Assembly: GCA_017451425.1 (NCBI GenBank)
Contig: JAFSPP010000011.1
Location: forward strand, 26,510-90,509
Source of the DNA: Clostridia bacterium
GTDB taxonomy: Bacteria > Bacillota > Clostridia > Oscillospirales > Acutalibacteraceae
DNA: 64,000 bases
Direction of reading: 5' to 3'
This document shows, piece by piece, positions 22,975 to 34,949 of the stretch; positions within the stretch are counted from its first letter, which is position 1; each line of letters opens with the position of its first letter. The translations under genes and the position numbers were made by a program. The notes under the pieces are model-generated. The model was not told the DNA's origin and searched no databases. It was given only the letters and a program-made list of their open reading frames with translations.

Positions 22975-23003
22975 TTGAATATCCGACTGTTTTTTGGCAT
23001 AAT
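22975..23003 (+). promoter_or_regulatory. Putative promoter of the pur operon
   Basis: TTGAAT (22975-22980), a 17-nt spacer, then CATAAT (22998-23003), preceded by TGg (extended -10-like). Confidence 0.5.
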
Positions 23004-23010
23004 ATTAGTG

Positions 23011-23120
23011 TACTTTGTAACTGACGGATCAGTGGGGTTTACCACATGGGAGCAAAGTAAAGTAATATGTCGACCGTCTGGGCAGTCCCTCAGTACACGA
23101 GGGACTGCCTTGTTTATTTT
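23011..23120 (+). promoter_or_regulatory. ZTP (pfl-motif) riboswitch with an intrinsic-terminator expression platform
   Basis: P1 is ACTTTG/CAAAGT. Conserved ACUGACGG, P2 GUGG/CCAC and GGGAGC are present. After a linker comes CGACCGUCUGGGCA. The pseudoknot GACGG:CCGUC covaries relative to the consensus GGCGG:CCGCC. The terminator GGCAGTCCCTC/GAGGGACTGCC (23081-23109) plus a T-run shares GGCA with the aptamer's 3' end. Confidence 0.8.
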
Positions 23121-23134
23121 CTGGAGGTGCTTTT

Positions 23135-23623
23135 GTGAAGAAAGTTGCGGTCATCATGGGCAGCAGTTCTGACCTCGGCGTGGTGGAGAAGTGCATAAAT
23201 ACGCTTTCCGACTACGGCATAGAGACAGAGGTACACGTATACTCCGCACACAGGACACCGGACAAGGTTCAGGCGTTTTGCAGCAAGGCACGCGAGAACG
23301 GCTTCGGTGTAATCATTGCCGCTGCCGGAAAAGCAGCACACCTTGCAGGTGTATGTGCGTCATGGACGACGCTTCCGGTTATCGGCATACCCGTAAAGGC
23401 CTCGGAGCTTGACGGAATGGACGCTCTTCTTGCGACCGTTCAGATGCCTTCAGGCATTCCCGTAGCCACGGTCGCAATAAACGGTGCCGCAAATGCAGCT
23501 CTGCTCGCTGTACAGATCCTCGCCGTAGAGGATGCTGCGCTCGCAGAGAAGCTTCAGAGCGCCAGAAAAGTAGGCGCAGATACTGTGCTTGCCGCAGACA
23601 GGGAAATTGCAGGCAGATATTAA
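23135..23623 (+). CDS. purE: N5-carboxyaminoimidazole ribonucleotide mutase (class I-like PurE)
   Basis: VAVIMGSSSDL, SAHRTP and AGKAAHLAGV are class I-like signatures. GTG start after GGAGGTG. Confidence 0.9.
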   Translation: MKKVAVIMGSSSDLGVVEKCINTLSDYGIETEVHVYSAHRTPDKVQAFCSKARENGFGVIIAAAGKAAHLAGVCASWTTLPVIGIPVKASELDGMDALLATVQMPSGIPVATVAINGAANAALLAVQILAVEDAALAEKLQSARKVGADTVLAADREIAGRY

Positions 23624-23658
23624 TCTGCCTGTTTTGACTTTTTTGGAGGAAATTATTC

Positions 23659-25083
23659 ATGGGTGGATTTTTCGGAGCTGTATCTTCATCGGACGTACTG
23701 CTCGATGTATTTTTCGGTACAGACTATCACTCACATCTCGGCACACGCCGCGGCGGACTCGCGGCTTATGACCCCGGAAAGGGCCTTCAGCGCGAGATTC
23801 ACAATATTGAAAACTCTCCCTTCAGAACGAAGTTTGAAGATATCTTCGACGAGATGAAGGGTTCATCATGCATAGGCTGTATCAGCGACTATGACCCTCA
23901 GCCTCTGCTTATGCGCTCAAAGTTCGGCGCTTACGCTATCTGTATGGTCGGTGTCGTAAACAACAAGGACGCCTTAATCAAGCAGTATCTTGAGACCACG
24001 GGTGGACACTTCGGCGCCATGACGGGCGGTCTTGTAAACACGACTGAACTCGTGGCTGCCATCATAAACCTTCAGGACGACTTTATCTCGGGTATAAAAC
24101 TGGCTCAGGACATCATCGACGGCACAGCCTCAATCCTGATCCTCAAAGAGGGCGGGGAACTCATCGCCGCCCGCGACAAGTTCGGCAGACTTCCCGTACT
24201 TCTCGGCAAAAAGGATACCGGCTATGCCGTCTCATTTGAGTCTTTCGCCTTTGAGAAGGTCGGCTATGAGTCCTGCTATGAACTCGGCCCCGGAGAGATA
24301 GTCTCCGTGACAACTTCGGGTTATAAGGTTGAGCGTCCTGCATTGCCAAAGATGCGTATCTGCTCATTCCTCTGGTCATACTATGGCTATCCGAACTCCG
24401 TATATGAGGGAGTCAATGTTGAAATCATGCGTTACTTAAACGGCAAACGCATGGCTGAGAACGACATGGAGAACGGTGAACTGCCGGCTGTGGACTTTGT
24501 CTGCGGCGTGCCGGACTCGGGCACGCCGCACGCAATAGGCTATTCGCATAAGAGCGGCATTAACTTCGCGCGTGCATTTATCAAGTACACTCCGACCTGG
24601 CCGCGCAGCTTCATGCCGCAGAACCAGGATCAGCGCGACATAGTCGCGAAGATGAAGCAGATTCCGGTAAAGGAACTCATCAAGGGCAAGAACCTCATGT
24701 TTGTCGATGACTCTATAGTCCGCGGCACGCAGATGAGAGAGACGGTCGAGTTCCTCTACGAGAACGGTGCATCTTCGGTTCACATGCGCTCTGCGTGTCC
24801 GCCGATAATGTACGGCTGCAAATACTTAAACTTCTCACGGTCCACTTCCGAGATGGAACTTATAACAAGAAACACAATCATGGAGATTGAAGGTGAAGAG
24901 GGCTTCAAGCACCTTGCCGAGTATTCAGACGGTAATACCGAGCGCGGAAAGAAGATGCGCGAGGCCATCTGCTCAAAGCTTCATCTCTCATCACTGCAAT
25001 TCCAGACCTTGGATGGTCTTGTCGAATCAATAGGTATCCCTCGCGAAAATCTCTGCACTTACTGCTGGACAGGGGAGGAATAA
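23659..25083 (+). CDS. Amidophosphoribosyltransferase-like protein with a degenerate N-terminal glutaminase domain
   Basis: The PRTase half is intact: PRPP loop [14 protein letters not shown] and Fe-S ligand contexts RICSF, ACPP...YGC and CTYCWTGE. The N-terminus is MGGFFG rather than MCG(I/V)(F/V)G, and I cannot find the Ntn-glutaminase motifs (LQHRGQ, HxRYST, HNGN). A strong RBS (GGAGGA) fixes the start. Confidence 0.75.
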
Positions 25084-25084
25084 T

Positions 25085-26134
25085 ATGGAAAACTCAAGAT
25101 CTGACGCATACGCCTCCGCAGGCGTTGATATTACGGCCGGCTACAAGGCTGTTGAGCTTATGAAGGCACATGTCGCCAAGACAATGACTTCCGGCGCAAT
25201 CGGTGCCATAGGCGGCTTCGGCGGCCTCTTCGAGCTTAATATGACCGGTATAACGAAACCGGTACTCGTTTCAGGCACCGATGGCGTGGGAACAAAGCTT
25301 AAGATAGCTTTCCTCATGGACAAGCACGACACGGTCGGCATTGACTGCGTCGCCATGTGTGTAAACGACATAATCTGCTGCGGCGCGAAGCCCCTTCTTT
25401 TCCTGGACTACATCGCCTGTGGCAAGAATATTCCCGAACGCATAGCTTCAATAGTCTCCGGTGTTGCAGAGGGCTGCGTACAGTCCGGAGCCGCGCTTGT
25501 AGGCGGTGAGACCGCTGAAATGCCCGGCTTTTATCCTGAGGACGAGTACGACCTTGCCGGTTTCTCGGTAGGCTTGGTTGATAAGTCAAAGATTCTTGAC
25601 AACACAAAGATGGAAGAGGGCGATGTAATCATCGCGCTTCCCTCATCGGGCGTTCATTCAAACGGTTTCTCGCTTGTGCGCAAGGTGTTCGACATTGAGA
25701 ATATCTCTGCCGCTGACCTTCGGGCTCCTCTGGATGCCCTTGACGGCAAGTCTCTGGGCGAGACGCTTCTGAAACCCACAAAGATTTACGTAAAACCCAT
25801 GCTCGCACTCTTCGATGCCGTTACGGTCAAGGCTGTTTCGCATATCACCGGCGGCGGATTTTATGAGAACATACCGCGCAGCATTCCGGACGGATTCTGC
25901 GCCTCAATCAAAAAGTCCTCAGTCCGCGTCCTGCCGATATTCAGACTTTTGCAGGAGCGCGGAGGAATTCCTGAGCATGACATGTTCAACACATATAATA
26001 TGGGCGTCGGTATGACCGCTGTTGTCTCCGCCGCCGATGCCGACAAGGCACTGTCGGTACTTCACTCTTTCGGCGAGGACGCCTATGTCCTCGGTACGAT
26101 AGTTAAAGGTTCTGAGAAGATAGTTCTGGAGTGA
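25085..26134 (+). CDS. purM: Phosphoribosylformylglycinamidine cyclo-ligase (AIR synthetase)
   Basis: [44 protein letters not shown] and [11 protein letters not shown]. Confidence 0.9.
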
Positions 26135-26138
26135 TAAT

Positions 26139-26768
26139 ATGAAAGACAAGGTACGTATAGCCGTTCTCGTCTCAGGCGGCGGCACGAATCTTCAGGCGCT
26201 TATTGATGCGCAGATGGCCGGAAAAATCCCTCATGGTGAGATTGTTACCGTAATCTCAAACAAAGAGGGGGCTTTCGCTCTTGAGCGGGCCAGGAATGCA
26301 GGTATTGAGGCCGTCACCATTTTAAAAGCTGACTGCGGCTCAAAAGAGGAGTTCGAGGATGTCATAGGTGACTCGCTCGAATTTCGCAAAATAGACCTGA
26401 TAGTTCTGGCGGGATTCCTCGCTGTCCTCTCCGAGGACTTCGTAAAAAGATTCCCGAACAGAATAATCAATATACATCCCTCGCTCATACCGTCTTTCTG
26501 CGGCGACGGCATGTACGGACTCAAGGTGCACAACGCTGCGCTCGCGCGCGGAGTAAAGGTCACCGGAGCAACCGTACACTATGTCAACGAAATTACGGAC
26601 GGCGGCGAGATAATACTTCAAAAGGCAGTGGACATACTGCCGGGAGACACACCCGCAACTCTTCAGAAGAGAGTTATGGAGGAGGCTGAGTGGAAGCTGC
26701 TTCCGCAGGCCACGGAAATCGTATGTCAGAAAATTTTAAAGGAGATCTCAGCTGATGAATATTTATGA
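26139..26768 (+). CDS. purN: Phosphoribosylglycinamide formyltransferase
   Basis: IAVLVSGGGTNLQALID, IINIHPSLIPSFCG and GVKVTGATVHYV. Confidence 0.9.
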   Translation: MKDKVRIAVLVSGGGTNLQALIDAQMAGKIPHGEIVTVISNKEGAFALERARNAGIEAVTILKADCGSKEEFEDVIGDSLEFRKIDLIVLAGFLAVLSEDFVKRFPNRIINIHPSLIPSFCGDGMYGLKVHNAALARGVKVTGATVHYVNEITDGGEIILQKAVDILPGDTPATLQKRVMEEAEWKLLPQATEIVCQKILKEISADEYL

Positions 26769-27501
26769 GACCATGTCGATGGGCAGCAGAATTCACGGAA
26801 ATGAGTATGTCGGAAGAGGCATAGTCATAGGAAAGACAGCGGACGGCACGAAGGCTGCCATTGCCTACTTCATAATGGGCCGTTCCGAAAACAGCAGAAA
26901 CCGCATCTTCTCCAAAGAGGGAGACAATGTCACGATTTATCCCTTCGACGAATCAAAGGTTTCAGATCCTTCACTTATCATATACAACCCCGTAATGGTA
27001 CAGGGCAATTCAACAATCGTCACCAACGGTGACCAGACCTCTACCATCTATGAGAAACTCGGCTCAGAGAAGGCTGCCGGCAAATGCGGCTGCTACGCCT
27101 TTGAGAAGGCCCTGAAGACCAGGGAGTTTGAACCCGACGGTCCTAACTGGACACCGCGTATCTCCGGCATTGTTGATTTGAAGGACGGAGATTTCACATA
27201 CAAGATGAGTATATTAAAGTCGGCCGATGCAGAGGGCACAGCCTGCAATCGATTCACTTTCGATTATTCTCCGCTTCCCGGACTCGGCCACTTTATTCAT
27301 ACATACGTCTGTGACGGCAATCCCATTCCCACATTCCAGGGTGAGCCGGAGCGCGTAACAATTCCCGATGACATAGATAAGTTCTATGATGATATCTGGA
27401 ACAATTTAAACGCAAACAACAGGATTTCACTCTATGTCAGATACATTGACCTCGAGACAGGTAAGTATGACGACAGGATGATCAACAAGAACAAGAGGTA
27501 A
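26755..27501 (+). CDS. IMP cyclohydrolase, PurO-like (archaeal-type)
   Basis: 248 aa. YVGRGIVIGKTADG...YFIMGRSENSRNR resembles the PurO-type IMP cyclohydrolase family. It sits immediately upstream of an AICARFT-only gene, so purH is split. Confidence 0.65.
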   Translation: MNIYETMSMGSRIHGNEYVGRGIVIGKTADGTKAAIAYFIMGRSENSRNRIFSKEGDNVTIYPFDESKVSDPSLIIYNPVMVQGNSTIVTNGDQTSTIYEKLGSEKAAGKCGCYAFEKALKTREFEPDGPNWTPRISGIVDLKDGDFTYKMSILKSADAEGTACNRFTFDYSPLPGLGHFIHTYVCDGNPIPTFQGEPERVTIPDDIDKFYDDIWNNLNANNRISLYVRYIDLETGKYDDRMINKNKR

Positions 27502-27504
27502 GAC

Positions 27505-28680
27505 ATGAAAGAATTCGAACTCAAATACGGTTGCAATCCCAACCAGAAACCCGCAAAAATCTATATGAGAGACGGTTCTGATCTTCCGATAGATATTCTC
27601 TCCGGCAGACCCGGCTTCATCAATTTCCTTGATGCCTTCAACTCATGGCAGCTTGTTAAAGAGCTCAAAGAGGCTCTCGGACTTCCCGCAGTCACTTCAT
27701 TCAAGCATGTAAGCCCGACTTCGGCCGCCGTCGGAATACCGATGTCCGACACGCTTAAGAAGGCCTGCTTCGTCGAAGACGTGGAGCTGACACCCCTCGC
27801 CACCGCATATGCGCGTGCCCGCGGCACTGACCGCATGTGCTCGTTCGGCGACTGGGTGGCTCTCTCGGACGTCTGCGATGTTGCTACCGCAAACCTTATC
27901 AAGCGTGAGGTCTCCGACGGCGTCATAGCTCCGGGCTTCGAGCCTGAGGCCCTTGAAATCCTCAAGACCAAGAGGGGCGGTAACTACAACATAGTAAAAA
28001 TCGATCCTGATTATGTCCCTGAGGTTCAGGAGACAAAACAGGTCTTCGGTATAACTTTCGAGCAGGGAAGAAACAACTTCAGAATTGATGAGTCCCTTCT
28101 TGAAAACATTGTCACTGCGAATAAGGAACTTCCCGACAGCGCGAAGCGCGACCTTATAATCTCACTCATCACACTGAAGTATACTCAGTCCAACTCTGTC
28201 TGCTTCGCTGTTGACGGTCAGGCGATAGGCGTCGGCGCAGGTCAGCAGTCGCGCGTACACTGTGTGCGCCTTGCAGGCTCAAAGGCTGACACCTGGTTCC
28301 TCCGCCAGTGCGATAAGGTACTCTCGCTGCCGTTTAAAGAAGACATAGGCAGACCTGAGCGCGACAACGTCATCGACGGTTACATCAATCAAAACGAAGA
28401 GGACGTCTGCGCCGACGGTAACTGGCAGAAGTACTTCACTTCACAGCCTGCGCCTCTGACAGAGGCTGACAAGAGGGAATTCCTCTCAAAGCAGACAGGC
28501 GTAGCTTTAGGCTCAGATGCATTCTTCCCGTTCGCGGACAATATCGAACGCGCGAAGAAGAGCGGTGTTTCCTACATCGCAGAGCCCGGCGGTTCAATAA
28601 GAGACGACCTCGTAATCGCAAAGGCCGATGAATACGGCATGACGATGGCATTCACCGGAATGCGTCTCTTCCACCATTGA
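27505..28680 (+). CDS. purH: AICAR formyltransferase (PurH C-terminal-domain-only form)
   Basis: 391 aa. [50 protein letters not shown] and a C-terminal FTGMRLFHH. Confidence 0.85.
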
Positions 28681-28716: not shown

Positions 28717-29955
28717 ATGCTTTTTTTAGATGAACTCAAACAGTACGATGAAGCCGTATTCGAGGCTTGCAACAACGAACTTCTTCGCCAGAAGGGCAAT
28801 ATTGAGCTTATTGCCTCGGAAAACATTGTTTCCAAGGGCGTTCTGCTTGCCATGGGCACTGTGCTTACCAATAAATATTCCGAGGGCTATCCGGGCCACC
28901 GTTACTACGGCGGCTGCCAGTATGTCGACGTTGTTGAGGACCTTGCACGTGAGCGTGCAAAGGAACTCTTCGGTGCAGAACATGCTAATGTTCAGCCCCA
29001 CTCAGGCGTAAATGCAAACCTTGCAGTCATGTTTGCTCTTCTTGAGCCCGGCGACACGGTAATGGGCATGAACCTCGCCCACGGCGGACATCTCTCACAC
29101 GGCTCACCGGTAAACATCTCCGGCAAGTACTTCAATTTCGTATCCTACGGCATTGACGACGAGACTCAGTATATTGATTACGATGAGATGGAGAAGCTTG
29201 CTCTTCAGTGCCATCCGAAACTCATCATCTCAGGCGCGTCTGCCTATTCAAGAGTCATCGATTACAAGCGTATCCGTGAGATATGCGACAAGGTCGGCGC
29301 TTATATGATGGTCGACATTGCCCATATCGCAGGACTTATCGCAGCGGGCGAGCATCCTTCACCGGTGCCTTATGCAGATGCAGTCACGACCACGACTCAC
29401 AAGACCCTCCGCGGTCCCCGCGGCGGCCTTATCCTCTGCAAAGAGGCAATAGGCAAGAAAATAGACAGTGCTATCTTCCCCGGAACACAGGGCGGACCGC
29501 TCATGCACGTTATTGCCGCAAAGGCAGTTGCGTTCGGTGAGGCTTTAAAGCCCGAGTTCAAGACATATCAGCATCAAGTAATCCTTAATGCAAAGACCCT
29601 CTGTGACGACCTTATTGCCGAAGGCTACAAGATTGTCTCAGGCGGCACCGACAACCATCTCATGCTTTTAAACCTCACTCCGTTTAATGTTACGGGTAAG
29701 GAGCTTGAGGAAAAACTTGACCTTGTCCACATTACGGCAAACAAGAATGTTATCCCGAATGACCCTCAGCCCGCAAAGATCACAAGCGGTCTCAGACTCG
29801 GTACTCCCGCAGTAACCACGAGGGGATTCAAAGAGGAGGAAATGCATCTTATAGCCAAGTGGATCAAGGACATCACAGTTGATTTTGAAGGAAACAGAGC
29901 GCGTGTAAACGACGAAGTCAGCGCTCTTTGCGCAAAGTTCCCCATCTATGAATAA
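28717..29955 (+). CDS. glyA: Serine hydroxymethyltransferase
   Basis: [48 protein letters not shown] (PLP Lys) and [11 protein letters not shown]. Confidence 0.95.
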
Positions 29956-29970
29956 AATTTGAGGTGACTT

Positions 29971-31236
29971 ATGAAAATACTCGTAGTGGGCGGCGGCGGC
30001 CGCGAGCATGCAATCATCAAGAAGATTAAAGAGAATCCCGATGTTACTGAGATTTTTGCCCTACCGGGCAACGGCGGCATAGCAGCCGACGCGACATGTG
30101 TCGACATAGCCGCGACGGACATTGACAAGATTGTGGAATTCGCATTCTACAATCGTATCGATTTTGCCGTCGTCGCGCCTGACGACCCGCTGGTTCTCGG
30201 CTGCGTTGACGCGCTCGAGCACCACGGCATACCGTGCTTCGGCCCCGTGCAAAAGGCCGCAATAATCGAGGGCAGCAAGATCTTCTCAAAGAATCTTATG
30301 AAGAAATACGGCATCCCCACAGCGGAATATGCCGTCTTCACTGACAGGGAGGCAGCTCTCAAGTATGTTGAGACCTGCAAGATTCCCATTGTAATCAAGG
30401 CTGACGGCCTCGCGCTCGGCAAGGGTGTTATCATTGCCGAGACCAGAGAGCAGGCCGCTGATGCCGTCAATATGATGATGCTCGACATGAAGTTCGGAAA
30501 GAGCGGTTCACAGATTGTAATTGAGGAGTTCCTTGAGGGACCCGAGGTTACGGTGCTCTCTTTCACGGACGGCAAGACCCTTATCCCCATGATATCCTCA
30601 CAGGACCACAAGCGCGCCCTTGACGGCGACAAAGGTCTCAATACGGGCGGTATGGGTGTTGTGGCTCCGAACCCCTACTACACCAAGGAGATAGCCGATG
30701 AGTGCATGGAGAAAATCTTCCTTCCCACTATGGAAGCTATGAACGCAGAGGGCAGAACCTTCAAGGGCTGTCTCTACTTCGGCCTCATGCTTACGGCTGA
30801 CGGCCCGAAGGTCATAGAGTACAACTGCCGTTTCGGCGACCCCGAGACACAGGTAGTGCTTCCGCTTCTCAAAACCGACCTTCTCACAATCATGAGGGCC
30901 GTACGCTTCGGCAAACTCGCGAGTGTGGATGTAGAATTTGAGGACAAATCCGTATGCTGCGTGGTTATGGCTTCAAAGGGCTATCCCGAGCACTATGAGA
31001 AAGGTTATGAAATAACCTTCGACAACGGCACTGACGGTGTCTACATCGCCGGCGCAAAGCTTGAAAACGGAAAACTCCTCACAAACGGCGGACGCGTGCT
31101 CGTCGCGGTACGCACCGGCGACACACTGCAGGAGGCAATAGACAATGCCTATGCCGCAGTGAAGACTATTCATTTTGAAAATGCATATTATCGCACCGAC
31201 ATCGGTCAGCGTGCGCTGAAGGCAGGAAAAGAATAA
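29971..31236 (+). CDS. purD: Phosphoribosylamine-glycine ligase
   Basis: MKILVVGGGGREHA, PGNGG, KADGLALGKGV, EEFLEGPE, DHKRALDGDKGLNTGGMG, LYFGLMLT and EYNCRFGDPE. Confidence 0.95.
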   Translation: MKILVVGGGGREHAIIKKIKENPDVTEIFALPGNGGIAADATCVDIAATDIDKIVEFAFYNRIDFAVVAPDDPLVLGCVDALEHHGIPCFGPVQKAAIIEGSKIFSKNLMKKYGIPTAEYAVFTDREAALKYVETCKIPIVIKADGLALGKGVIIAETREQAADAVNMMMLDMKFGKSGSQIVIEEFLEGPEVTVLSFTDGKTLIPMISSQDHKRALDGDKGLNTGGMGVVAPNPYYTKEIADECMEKIFLPTMEAMNAEGRTFKGCLYFGLMLTADGPKVIEYNCRFGDPETQVVLPLLKTDLLTIMRAVRFGKLASVDVEFEDKSVCCVVMASKGYPEHYEKGYEITFDNGTDGVYIAGAKLENGKLLTNGGRVLVAVRTGDTLQEAIDNAYAAVKTIHFENAYYRTDIGQRALKAGKE

Positions 31237-34200
31237 TGGTATTTCGTGTATTCGTTGAAAAGAAGCCGCATCTCGCTCATGAGGCCGCTTCACTTAAATC
31301 CGAGATAAACAAGCTTCTCGGCATAAGCTCCGTCACATCCCTGCGTATCGTCAACAGATATGACCTTGAGGGACTTGATGAGGCTACATTTCAGCTTGCG
31401 GTAAAGACCATACTGTCCGAACCGCAGCTTGATGATGTCTGCTTTGAACTTGACGCAGGCACTTGTAAAATGTTTGCCGTCGAGTATCTTCCCGGACAGT
31501 TTGATCAGAGAGCGAACTCCGCGGCAGAGTGTATTCAGCTCGTTGCAAAAGGGGAGAGACCTCTCGTCCGTTCGGCGAAAGTATATCTTCTCGGAGGCGA
31601 TGTTTCCGATTCAGACCTCGAGGCAATCAAGAAATACGTTGTAAACCCCGTAGAGGCCCGTATAGCGTCCCTTGAGAAACCTGAGACACTCGTCATGCCC
31701 ATGGACCTTCCGACAACCGTTGAGACCCTCACGGGCTTCATAGGCTACTCAGATGAGCAGCTCTCTGCATTTGTTGCGGAAAAAGGTCTTGCAATGGACT
31801 TTGACGACATAAAGTTCTGCCAGGACTATTTCAAGAGCGAGCAGCGCGACCCGACTATCACCGAGATAAGGATGATAGACACCTACTGGTCCGACCACTG
31901 CCGTCACACCACTTTCCTGACAACGGTCGATTCCGTAAAATTTGATGACGCCTTCCTTCAGGAGGCGTATAACAGGTATATTGCCGCCCGTGTCGAACTC
32001 GGCAGGGAGAAGCCCGTAAACCTCATGGACATAGGCACTCTTGCCGCAAAGGTCTTAAAGGCACAGGGCAAACTTCAGAAACTCGACGAGTCTGAAGAGA
32101 TAAACGCATGTACCGTAAAGATGACAATAAAGCATGACGGTGAGGATGAGGACTGGCTCCTTCTGTTCAAGAATGAGACACATAACCATCCCACCGAGAT
32201 AGAGCCTTTCGGCGGCGCCGCGACCTGCATCGGCGGTGCCATTCGTGACCCGCTGTCGGGCCGCGCATACGTCTACGCCGCAATGCGCGTGACGGGCGCA
32301 GCAGACCCGACAAGACCGCTCTCCGAGACGATGCAGGGCAAGCTTCCCCAGAGGAAGCTTGTTACAACTGGAGCCAACGGTTATTCCTCATACGGCAACC
32401 AGATAGGTCTTGCGACCGGTCAGGTAGATGAACTCTACCATGACGGCTATGCCGCAAAGCGTATGGAAATCGGCGCAGTTGTAGCCGCGGCACCGGCTGA
32501 GAATGTCCGCCGCGAAGTACCCGCTCCCGGAGACATAGTAATCCTGCTCGGCGGCCGCACCGGACGTGACGGCTGCGGCGGTGCAACAGGCTCCTCCAAG
32601 TCGCACAACCTTCAGTCCCTTGACACCTGCGGTGCAGAAGTACAGAAGGGTAATGCCCCTGAGGAGAGAAAACTTCAGAGACTCTTTAGGAATCCGACAG
32701 CTTCAAAACTTATCAAGCGCTGCAACGACTTCGGTGCAGGCGGTGTGTCTGTTGCCATAGGCGAACTCGCCGACGGCCTTGAGATATCACTCGACGCCGT
32801 ACCGAAGAAGTATGAAGGCCTCGACGGCACGGAACTCGCCATTTCCGAATCTCAGGAGAGAATGGCTGTTGTCGTTGAACCCGGCGATGCCGATGAGTTC
32901 ATCAGACTCGCAAACTCCGAGAACCTTGAGGCGACTATTGTTGCAACTGTTACGGAGAAGCCCTACCTTACAATGAACTGGAAGGGCAATACCATAGTAA
33001 ATATCTCGCGTGAGTTCTTAAACTCAAACGGCGCAGAGAAACATATTGATATTCATACAGAGGCTCAGGAACCCTTCAGGAGACCTGTCGCAGGTTCCTT
33101 CTCAGACAACTACAGGAAACTTGTCGATGACCTCAATGTCTGCTCAAAGAGGGGACTTTCCGAGCGCTTTGACTCAACAATAGGCGCGGGTACCGTTTTA
33201 ATGCCTTTCGGAGGCAAGTACCAGCGCACTCCCATCCAGGCCATGGCAAACAAGGTCTCCGTGGAGCATGGCGACACGGACACCTGCTCACTTATGGCCT
33301 GGGGTTACAACCCTTATATTATGGAGAAGGACCAGTACCACGGAGCATATCTCTCCGTAGTTGAGTCCATCTCGAAACTCATAGCCACAGGCGCATCTTT
33401 CGAGGATGTTTACCTCACATTCCAGGAGTACTTTGAAAAGCCCGGCAAGACGCCGGAACGCTGGGGCAAGCCGCTGGCGGCATTGCTTGGCGCGTTCTCG
33501 GCCCAGATAGACTTCGGCTGCGCCGCTATTGGCGGCAAGGACTCCATGTCCGGCTCCTTTGAGGACCTCGATGTGCCGCCTACGCTCTGCTCGTTTGCGG
33601 TCACAACCGACAAGATCAGGAGAATAATCTCAAATGACTTCAAGGCCGCAGGCCACCGCGTGCTTGTCGCTTATCCCGATTATGACGAGTACGGTGTGCC
33701 GAAGGCTGAGAGTCTGAAGAAACTCTTTGTCGCAGTCTCTGACCTGATAGGCGAAGGCAGTGTAATCTCCGCTTATACACCCACTTACGGCGGTGTTGCA
33801 GAAGCGGTTTATAAGATGTGCATAGGCAACGGTCTCGGCTTTGACTTTGTCAGCGAGACAAGCCTCGACGAGCTCTTCGGCTATCGCTACGGTGCATTCC
33901 TGCTTGAACTCGATGTTAACGCGGGCATGGTGCTTGAGGCCTCTGACGGTTTCAACGCAAAACAGCTCGGTAACACTATCTTTGAGCAGAAACTCCGCTA
34001 CGGTTCTGAGGAACTTGAACTTTCAGAACTCGACTCACTCTATGAGAACAGGCTTGAGAAGGTATTTGCCTGCAATATAGAGACGGAGGAGAAGGAAATA
34101 CCCGTATTCTCATATGATGAGGAGAAGCGTTTCACATCTCTTCTGAAACTCGATCCGAAGGTGCTCATCCCCGTATTCCCGGGCACAAACTGTGAGATTG

Positions 34201-34949
34201 ATACGGCCAAGGCCTTTGAGGCCGCCGGTGCCGAGGTACAGATCTTCGTCATAAACAATCTCACCCCGAAGGGAATAGAGGAGTCCATTGCGCGCTTTGC
34301 CGACGCAATTGACACTTCGCAGATTATCTTCGTACCCGGCGGAGTCTCCGGCGGCGACGAGCCTGAGGGCTCCGCGAAACTAATTGCTTCCTTTTTCAGG
34401 AATCCCGAGATATCTGCCGCAGTAATGAACCTCCTTGAGAACAGGGACGGCCTCATGGGCGGTATCTGCAACGGTTTCCAGGCCCTTATAAAACTCGGCC
34501 TTGTACCTTACGGCAAGATAATCGAGACTGATGCTGACTGCCCGACACTCTCATACAACGTCATCGGCCGTCACCAGTCCAAACTCGTACGCACAAGGGT
34601 TTGCTCGAAAAACTCTCCCTGGCTTACAAAGGCTGAAGTCGGTCAGATTGTCACGGTTCCCATCTCACACGGTGAGGGACGTATAATCGCCTCAGACGAT
34701 CTTTTACTCGCTCTCGCCGAAAAGGGTCAGATTATGACTCAGTATGTCGACCTTGACGGTAAACCGACTTATGATGTCGCTTTCAACCCCAACGGCTCGG
34801 CGATGGCCGTCGAAGGCCTACTGTCGCCTGACGGCCGCGTCTTCGGCAAGATGGGACACTCCGAGCGTACCGGTACCGGTCTCTACAAGAACGTACCCGG
34901 CGACTTCGATCTCGGTTTGTTCACATCCGCGGTCGGGTATTTTAAGTAA
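31236..34949 (+). CDS. purL: Phosphoribosylformylglycinamidine synthase, single-chain (PurS-PurL-PurQ fused) form
   Basis: 1237 aa. [36 protein letters not shown] and SESQERM. C-terminal glutaminase with GICNGFQAL and a HGEG/HSERT-type triad context. Confidence 0.95.

Follow-up and report, generated by a model that had tools for sequence, protein, structure and literature searches.

A deeply branching PurF homolog without the catalytic cysteine in gut Clostridia, probably fed by ammonia

Purine synthesis is committed and regulated at the step catalyzed by PurF, which in the textbook view depends on glutamine. The 64,000-nucleotide stretch of the Clostridia bacterium assembly GCA_017451425.1 analyzed here (the window) contains a purine operon whose PurF homolog, a protein of 474 amino acids encoded at positions 23659-25083 and beginning with MGGFFGAV, lacks the N-terminal nucleophilic cysteine (Cys1) of the glutaminase domain. 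This protein, referred to below as Cys-less PurF, probably forms 5-phosphoribosylamine from 5-phosphoribosyl 1-pyrophosphate (PRPP) and free ammonia, not from glutamine; a probability of about 70% is assigned to this reading. In its favor are the intact phosphoribosyltransferase (PRTase) site, flexible loop and iron–sulfur (Fe-S) ligands, the status of the gene as the only purF found in its genome, its place in a riboswitch-controlled operon, and the completeness of the pathway around it. The analysis of the Cys1 position, the conservation profile of the N-terminal domain (N-domain) and the cross-tabulation with losses of other glutaminases are new in this work. All features of the window described below lie on its forward strand.

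Glutaminase and phosphoribosyltransferase domains of Cys-less PurF

The protein was aligned with B. subtilis PurF (1ao0), E. coli PurF (NC_000913) and four canonical PurFs of relatives, and a family alignment was made from 36 diverse full-length Cys-less representatives; canonical residues are numbered as in mature E. coli PurF. The codon of Gly2 (23662-23664) falls on the position of Cys1, the nucleophile of the N-terminal nucleophile (Ntn) glutaminases. Moreover, Arg26 is replaced by Leu27, Arg73 by Ser76, Tyr74 by Asp77, Asn101 by Val97 and Asp127 by Thr128, and residues 75-79 are deleted, which shortens the glutamine loop by five residues and leaves a remnant at 23875-23904. Among the glutamine-binding and oxyanion residues Arg26, Arg73, Asn101, Gly102 and Asp127, only Gly102 is kept, as Gly98. 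An earlier sequence-only reading of this gene had reported that the catalytic cysteine is missing and that other signatures of Ntn glutaminases could not be found, and the alignment bears out both statements. In PurF, Arg73 forms a salt bridge with the carboxylate of glutamine, Thr76 and Gly102 contact glutamine through their backbones, Tyr74 and Ile335 constitute one of the ammonia channel's walls, and residues 73-84 make up the glutamine loop (PMC7953260). The tunnel is completed by reorientation of loop 73-79 (PMC8674909).

The same changes run through the family. The Cys1 position holds glycine in 13 of the 36 representatives, serine in another 13, threonine in three, alanine in two and lysine in one, with a few other states (including aspartate) or gaps elsewhere. 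Position 2 thus varies freely, which speaks against the need for an N-terminal nucleophile anywhere in the clade. The position of Arg73 is occupied by serine in 33 of 36 members, those of Asn101 and Asp127 vary freely, and both the five-residue deletion of the glutamine loop and the loss of the glutaminase machinery are found in 36 of 36. Because the nucleophile, the oxyanion asparagine and the glutamine-binding arginine and aspartate are all missing, and the glutamine loop is shortened, the Ntn domain is predicted to be incapable of glutamine hydrolysis. No catalytic residue was found in a shifted position; the sole candidate for a relocated nucleophile, Cys74 (aligned to E. coli His71), is a cysteine in 5 of the 36 members and a valine in 21, and was rejected. 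A twin-histidine ammonium site in the motif DYHSH is not supported either, as H26 corresponds to canonical H25 and H24 is less than 80% conserved in the wider clade.

The possibility that the missing cysteine is an artefact of a wrong start or of a sequencing or assembly error deserves mention, since archaeal purF models have lost their cysteine through mis-called starts (PMC3261824). In the present case, this explanation is already refuted and its remaining probability is negligible. The Shine–Dalgarno sequence GGAGGA (23645-23650) stands 8 nt before the ATG, and an in-frame TGA (23635-23637) lies 24 nt upstream of it. The seven sense codons between them (TTC TTA AAA AGG TGG TTT CTT) include no start codon, so the start is fixed and no upstream cysteine is possible. 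In other words, neither an upstream start nor a cysteine-bearing propeptide exists, in agreement with the sequence-only reading, which had placed the start at MGGFFGAV on account of the ribosome-binding site. The earliest cysteine of the product is residue 71.

The Cys-less start also recurs in independent assemblies. One DNA contig, assembled from a different sample of the same study, covers 23003-24452 and differs at a single position (23883). Another, from a goat-gut study of a different year, covers 23066-24092 and shows 36 differences; among the differences listed, none falls in the first codons. Together with 80 orthologous loci, these agreeing contigs rule out a sequencing or assembly error as the source of the missing cysteine. 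MGGFFG begins at least 67 of these 80 species-level orthologs (loci on genome contigs) and all 12 of the family members sampled, and the other glutaminase residues are lost too. Additionally, two RNA-seq libraries yielded contigs over 23510-23798 and 23545-23751 and over much of the remainder of the gene. They suggest that Cys-less purF is transcribed, and do no more than suggest it because RNA libraries can contain DNA.

Despite the loss of the glutaminase residues, the N-domain (approximately residues 1-230; 23659-24348) retains the Ntn fold and is strongly conserved. Its match to the Pfam family PF13537 (GATase_7) reaches 24.6 bits, just under the 25-bit cut-off. Tested as a class II (Ntn) glutaminase, it has the fold, with a structural match to 1xff at a template modeling (TM) score of 0.75, but carries glycine in place of the N-terminal nucleophilic residue. 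Among 70 species-level orthologs, mean column conservation is 0.75 in the N-domain and 0.80 in the C-domain; in residues 11-60 and 71-90, it peaks at 0.82-0.87, not far below the 0.88-0.91 seen around the PRPP loop. The conserved residues D22, Y23, H48, F59, S76 and N127 are specific to the clade and lie in the region that forms the canonical glutamine pocket. By this profile, the N-domain is not decaying.

In the PRTase half, the PRPP-binding loop (residues 349-358; 24703-24732) is intact apart from a clade-specific Gln358 in place of Thr374. The type I PRTase PRPP motif, composed of hydrophobic residues, two acidic residues and small residues, is present at residues 346-357, whereas PF00156 is matched weakly, at 14.7 bits, as is to be expected of a PurF-type domain. 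With E. coli numbers in brackets, the flexible loop keeps K309 (K326), R316 (R332), R326 (R342) and K333 (K349), and the PRPP loop keeps D350 and D351 (D367), S352 (S368), and R355, G356 and T357 (R371-T373). Y241 (Y258), R258 (R275) and L401 (L415) are retained as well. Across the clade, K326, R332, R342, K349, D367, S368, R371, G372, T373, Y258, R275 and L415 are at least 81% conserved. The flexible loop, which faces the region of the glutamine pocket, has clade-specific changes at N327 (to Y), T333 (to S) and M336 (to P).

Four cysteines align with the ligands of canonical [4Fe-4S]-type PurFs and are putative cluster ligands here. They are Cys235 (24361-24363), which is 100% conserved in the clade, Cys387 (24817-24819), and the pair Cys466 and Cys469 in the motif CTYC (25054-25065); conservation of the four ranges from 94 to 100%. 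The sequence-only reading had described the PRTase half, the PRPP loop and the Bacillus-type contexts of the Fe-S cysteines as intact, and alignment and clade conservation agree with this. Furthermore, an AlphaFold (AF2) model built with 39 family members as input predicts a confident two-domain PurF fold (pLDDT 93.7, pTM 0.91). Over its full length, this model superimposes on 1ao0 with a TM score of 0.83-0.86 and a root-mean-square deviation of 3.2 Å at 28% identity, and it combines the Ntn sandwich with a type I PRTase.

Database comparisons place the protein near PurF and at a distance from all curated members. The NCBIfam purF equivalog model TIGR01134 reaches 163.8 bits where its cut-off is 350, and the match extends over profile positions 82-396 only. 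The best match in the Protein Data Bank is B. subtilis PurF 1ao0 (E 1.8e-42), with 1gph also at about 2e-42, followed by the Arabidopsis and then the E. coli enzyme, and the closest reviewed UniProt entry is only about 28% identical. Cys-less PurF is homologous to PurF and would work like it. Of the features that define the glutamine-dependent family, it lacks three, namely the N-terminal nucleophile, an intact glutamine site and a score above the curated cut-off, and it has the fold, the PRTase residues and the Fe-S cysteines.

Operon, genome and distribution of the clade

The gene occupies the second place in a purine operon that is preceded by a ZMP/ZTP riboswitch aptamer at 23007-23090 (Rfam RF01750, 61.2 bits against a gathering threshold of 39). 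The first gene is purE (23135-23623; TIGR01162, 192.5 bits, over the cut-off). Cys-less purF is followed by purM (25085-26134; TIGR00878, 436 bits) and purN (26139-26768; TIGR00639, 202 bits), and further downstream by purH, encoding 5-aminoimidazole-4-carboxamide ribonucleotide (AICAR) formyltransferase (27505-28680; NF005492, 686 bits), by glyA for serine hydroxymethyltransferase (28717-29955; NF000586, 630 bits), and by purD, whose product consumes phosphoribosylamine (29971-31236; TIGR00877, 524 bits). Between purN and the AICAR formyltransferase gene lies a candidate PurO-like inosine monophosphate cyclohydrolase gene (26755-27501), which the archaeal-type PurO model matches weakly (NF003167, 65 bits, cut-off 150). 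The operon also contains a gene for a large PurL (31236-34949; TIGR01857, 1831 bits), in which the fused class I glutaminase domain is intact, with the motif GICNGFQ and a downstream His-x-Glu. Given this intact glutaminase, the purine pathway would combine a first step that runs on ammonia with a fourth step that runs on glutamine. The genes purC and purB are found together on another contig (C39) of the same genome.

The organism is a ruminant-gut bacterium whose genome (1.48 Mb, 66 contigs) is 94.9% complete. No second or canonical purF was found in this assembly, where the Cys-less locus is the sole match to TIGR01134. A wider survey covered 201 genomes of the order, each at least 95% complete. 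Canonical PurF is present in 126 of them, 60 carry only the Cys-less type, one has only a fragment of a canonical gene, and 14 have none. Among the 60 is a closed genome of a single contig, in which the sole PurF homolog is 62% identical to the protein studied here and purD lies 3.3 kb further downstream on the same strand. As PurD needs phosphoribosylamine, the simplest source of this compound is Cys-less PurF. Judged from gene content, Cys-less PurF is most likely the working first enzyme of purine synthesis in this organism. Some genomes hold both types, sometimes in tandem, as at the loci L005 (G015:C101), L065, L071 and L082, where the canonical partner bears a propeptide.

Cys-less PurF is widespread. 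A word-indexed search returned 8000 candidates, all with E values of at most 1e-10, and identity ranged from 68 to 99% among the 120 matches listed. The 80 species-level loci come mostly from Acutalibacteraceae, Oscillospiraceae and Ruminococcus metagenome-assembled genomes of ruminant and human guts, and among the cultured carriers are Evtepia gabavorous KLE1738 and a Lawsonibacter strain. Many deeper branches came to light in an exhaustive, profile-free search of representatives at 50% identity. In a maximum-likelihood tree, all 36 representatives stand on one side of a branch with a support of 100 in the Shimodaira–Hasegawa-like approximate likelihood-ratio test (SH-aLRT). By these phylogenetic and alignment data, Cys-less PurF is a deep, monophyletic and uncharacterized branch of PurF.

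Two further observations concern the history and recognition of this clade. The single sequence P0250 is sister to the whole clade and keeps Cys1, Arg26 and His71, while it already has the five-residue deletion of the glutamine loop and serine at Arg73; it may be an intermediate form. The motif [DE]DS[IL]VRGTQ, with glutamine at canonical Thr374, serves as a simple diagnostic of the clade and occurs at no fewer than 600 loci in a collection with one genome per species.

The remaining glutaminases of the genome were also surveyed. Class I glutaminase domains were matched only in HisH, within the his cluster, and in CobQ; the only domain of the PurQ type is the one fused to PurL, in which the cysteine of GICNGFQ is kept; and PF13522, the class II glutaminase model, has 0 matches in the genome. 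GlmS was not found in this genome, and a NagB-like glucosamine-6-phosphate deaminase gene at C47:9143-9787 could supply glucosamine 6-phosphate from ammonia. A pyrimidine cluster about 20 kb past the end of the window (C48:110839-118786) contains pyrR, a permease gene, pyrC, carB, pyrK and pyrD. Its CarB has 1061 amino acids and no adjacent carA, and CarA was not found anywhere in the genome with either tblastn using E. coli CarA or TIGR01368, which suggests that the carbamoyl-phosphate synthetase of this genome is ammonia-dependent. GuaA is encoded by a synthetase-only gene of 337 codons at C22:98-1108 on the reverse strand, without the N-terminal glutaminase domain, and a separate glutaminase subunit of the GuaA type was not found in the genome. 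Searches of the genome for PyrG and for an Amt ammonium transporter were also negative, and glutamine synthetase is present.

These losses tend to accompany Cys-less PurF in relatives. Seven genomes of the genus have the Cys-less type alone (G001, G004, G006, G007, G009, G010 and G000, the last being the genome that carries the analyzed gene), and all of them are without GlmS, CarA and the GuaA glutaminase, whereas G005, G008 and G012, with canonical PurF, have all three, and G011 is mixed. In the 201-genome survey, searches for the GuaA glutaminase came up negative in 42 of the 60 Cys-less-only genomes and in 28 of the 141 others, and the 42 are spread over eleven GTDB families; for GlmS, the corresponding figures are 32 of 60 and 40 of 141. 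Drawn from related genomes and incomplete assemblies, these figures describe a tendency and do not amount to a formal test. A strict linkage between the loss of GlmS and Cys-less PurF was considered and rejected: the figures for GlmS show only a tendency, and the closed genome G209 carries GlmS as well as a GuaA glutaminase domain. The co-loss of the glutaminase parts of CarA, GuaA and GlmS suggests a coordinated nitrogen economy. The ammonia-dependent lifestyle proposed by the sequence-only reading gains support from these absences and from the lack of Amt in the genome searched, with the reservation that glutamine has not been abandoned.

Proposed mechanism and rival explanations

The reaction proposed for Cys-less PurF is PRPP + NH3 → phosphoribosylamine + pyrophosphate, and it is considered the most likely because E. 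coli PurF with a replaced Cys1 still accepts ammonia. Ammonia may gain access to C1 of PRPP directly, or it may pass through what was once the glutamine pocket and then through the interdomain channel. With five residues missing from the loop that closes the tunnel, this pocket may stand open, and ammonia would then enter a channel that is still closed over PRPP by the flexible loop. The N-domain would be kept as a lid and channel for the PRTase site and for the sake of the Fe-S site and oligomer contacts. Moreover, Cys-less PurF may be one element of a broader move of this genome toward ammonia-fed amination. A bolder version, tentative and on balance doubtful, regards the N-domain as a purpose-built module for the entry and gating of ammonia or ammonium that feeds the interdomain channel, and the clade as the mark of a lineage-wide switch, in Clostridia of gut and rumen, from glutamine to ammonia as the nitrogen source for making purines, guanosine monophosphate, carbamoyl phosphate and amino sugars. 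It draws on the trimmed glutamine loop and on the conservation of D22, Y23, H48, S76 and D77, which would lie opposite the co-changed flexible loop.

Several observations weigh against ammonia as the nitrogen donor of Cys-less PurF. The N-terminal 90 residues are about as strongly conserved as the PRPP loop, which a mere scaffold would not obviously call for, and the domain may have a further role. At 94.9% completeness, absences from the genome mean that a gene was not found, not that it is proven missing. The tandem arrangement of Cys-less and canonical purF in some genomes indicates that the two forms are not simply interchangeable. Glutamine also continues to be made and used: the genome encodes a glutamine synthetase, and the glutaminases of PurL, HisH and CobQ are retained. 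As the genomes compared are related, they do not count as independent cases, and the support is smaller than the co-occurrence counts suggest. In addition, a full-text literature search found no description of the Cys-less clade or of a natural ammonia-dependent PurF beyond a remark on Mlab_0150, a protein of Methanocorpusculum labreanum.

In the main rival explanation, the remodeled N-domain is not simply fed by ammonia and instead forms a site for another nitrogen donor (an amide or an amine) or for an allosteric effector. Such a role would account for the conservation of residues 11-60 and 71-90 close to the level of the PRPP loop among the 70 orthologs, for the clade-specific polar residues D22, Y23, H48, S76 and N127 in the region of the canonical glutamine pocket, and for the changes N327 to Y, T333 to S and T374 to Q in the facing loop and the PRPP loop. 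It is nevertheless unlikely: no nucleophile is conserved, with G, S, T, A, K or D at the Cys1 position and valine for Cys74 in 21 of 36 members, the positions of N101 and D127 are unconstrained, the sequence names no candidate ligand, and the disappearance of other glutaminase parts across the genome favors ammonia. The idea that Cys-less PurF is a dead or regulatory relic is less probable still. According to it, phosphoribosylamine would come from another route, or purines from salvage, and the protein would act as a regulatory subunit where canonical PurF exists. The tandem pairs would fit this role, and Mlab_0150, with serine for cysteine, was judged not to be a true PurF (PMC3261824). However, strong purifying selection acts on the PRPP-binding and flexible-loop residues and on the Fe-S ligands, the gene sits in a riboswitch-controlled biosynthetic operon, and the protein is the sole PurF homolog in 60 of 201 genomes, beside an otherwise complete pathway that needs phosphoribosylamine.

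The sequence-only reading had itself raised two alternatives, namely a canonical purF elsewhere and a separate amidotransferase partner, and neither fared well. The genome search, within its 94.9% completeness, returned no canonical gene. A separate glutaminase subunit that feeds ammonia to Cys-less PurF, as PurQ does for PurL or HisH for HisF, is conceivable inasmuch as split amidotransferases are common and the retained interdomain architecture could dock a partner. Yet the genome offers no spare glutaminase: every gene of the operon is identified as pur or glyA, the class I glutaminases are limited to HisH, CobQ and the fused PurL domain, PF13522 has no match, and the Ntn domain still fills the place where a partner would deliver ammonia. 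This makes the partner highly improbable, and the use of free ammonia by Cys-less PurF remains the best explanation.

If this explanation is true, its consequences extend beyond a single enzyme. Automatic annotation as EC 2.4.2.14 and metabolic models would give the wrong nitrogen donor for about 30% of the order's high-quality genomes in this sample. The purine supply of these gut and rumen bacteria would be tied directly to ambient ammonia, and glutamine-analog inhibitors would leave them unaffected.

Comparison with known systems

The closest characterized counterpart is the [4Fe-4S] PurF of B. subtilis (1AO0, 1GPH; TIGR01134; EC 2.4.2.14), which shares with Cys-less PurF the two-domain fold, the PRPP loop, the flexible loop, the four cluster cysteines and the position of its gene inside a pur operon. 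In contrast to the B. subtilis enzyme, Cys-less PurF has glycine at Cys1, is made without a propeptide, has its glutamine-site residues replaced and its glutamine loop shortened by five residues, and carries glutamine for Thr374 in the PRPP loop.

The activity proposed here is also known from the laboratory. In E. coli PurF, replacement of Cys1 abolishes the use of glutamine and leaves the use of ammonia intact (Mei and Zalkin 1989, as cited in PMC3261824). By analogy, ammonia-dependent synthesis of phosphoribosylamine by these mutants corresponds to the reaction that Cys-less PurF may perform. The mutants are point mutants with an otherwise intact glutamine site, whereas Cys-less PurF comes from an old, naturally occurring lineage that has remodeled the entire site and still conserves it.

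In the literature searched, a natural PurF homolog without the catalytic cysteine is mentioned once. Mlab_0150 is a PurF paralog with serine for this cysteine; its gene is described as recently duplicated, next to a canonical purF, and the protein was judged probably not to be a true PurF (Brown et al. 2011, PMC3261824). Cys-less purF, in contrast, is here a sole copy and stands in an operon. It also belongs to a deep, separate clade.

Finally, several glutamine amidotransferases have ammonia counterparts, such as AsnA in relation to AsnB, the NH3-type NadE, and the large subunit CarB acting alone. In each of them, the same reaction is run on free ammonia, as is proposed for Cys-less PurF. These counterparts have no glutaminase domain or are unrelated to the glutamine-dependent enzyme, whereas Cys-less PurF keeps a full-length, conserved domain that appears to have been disarmed.

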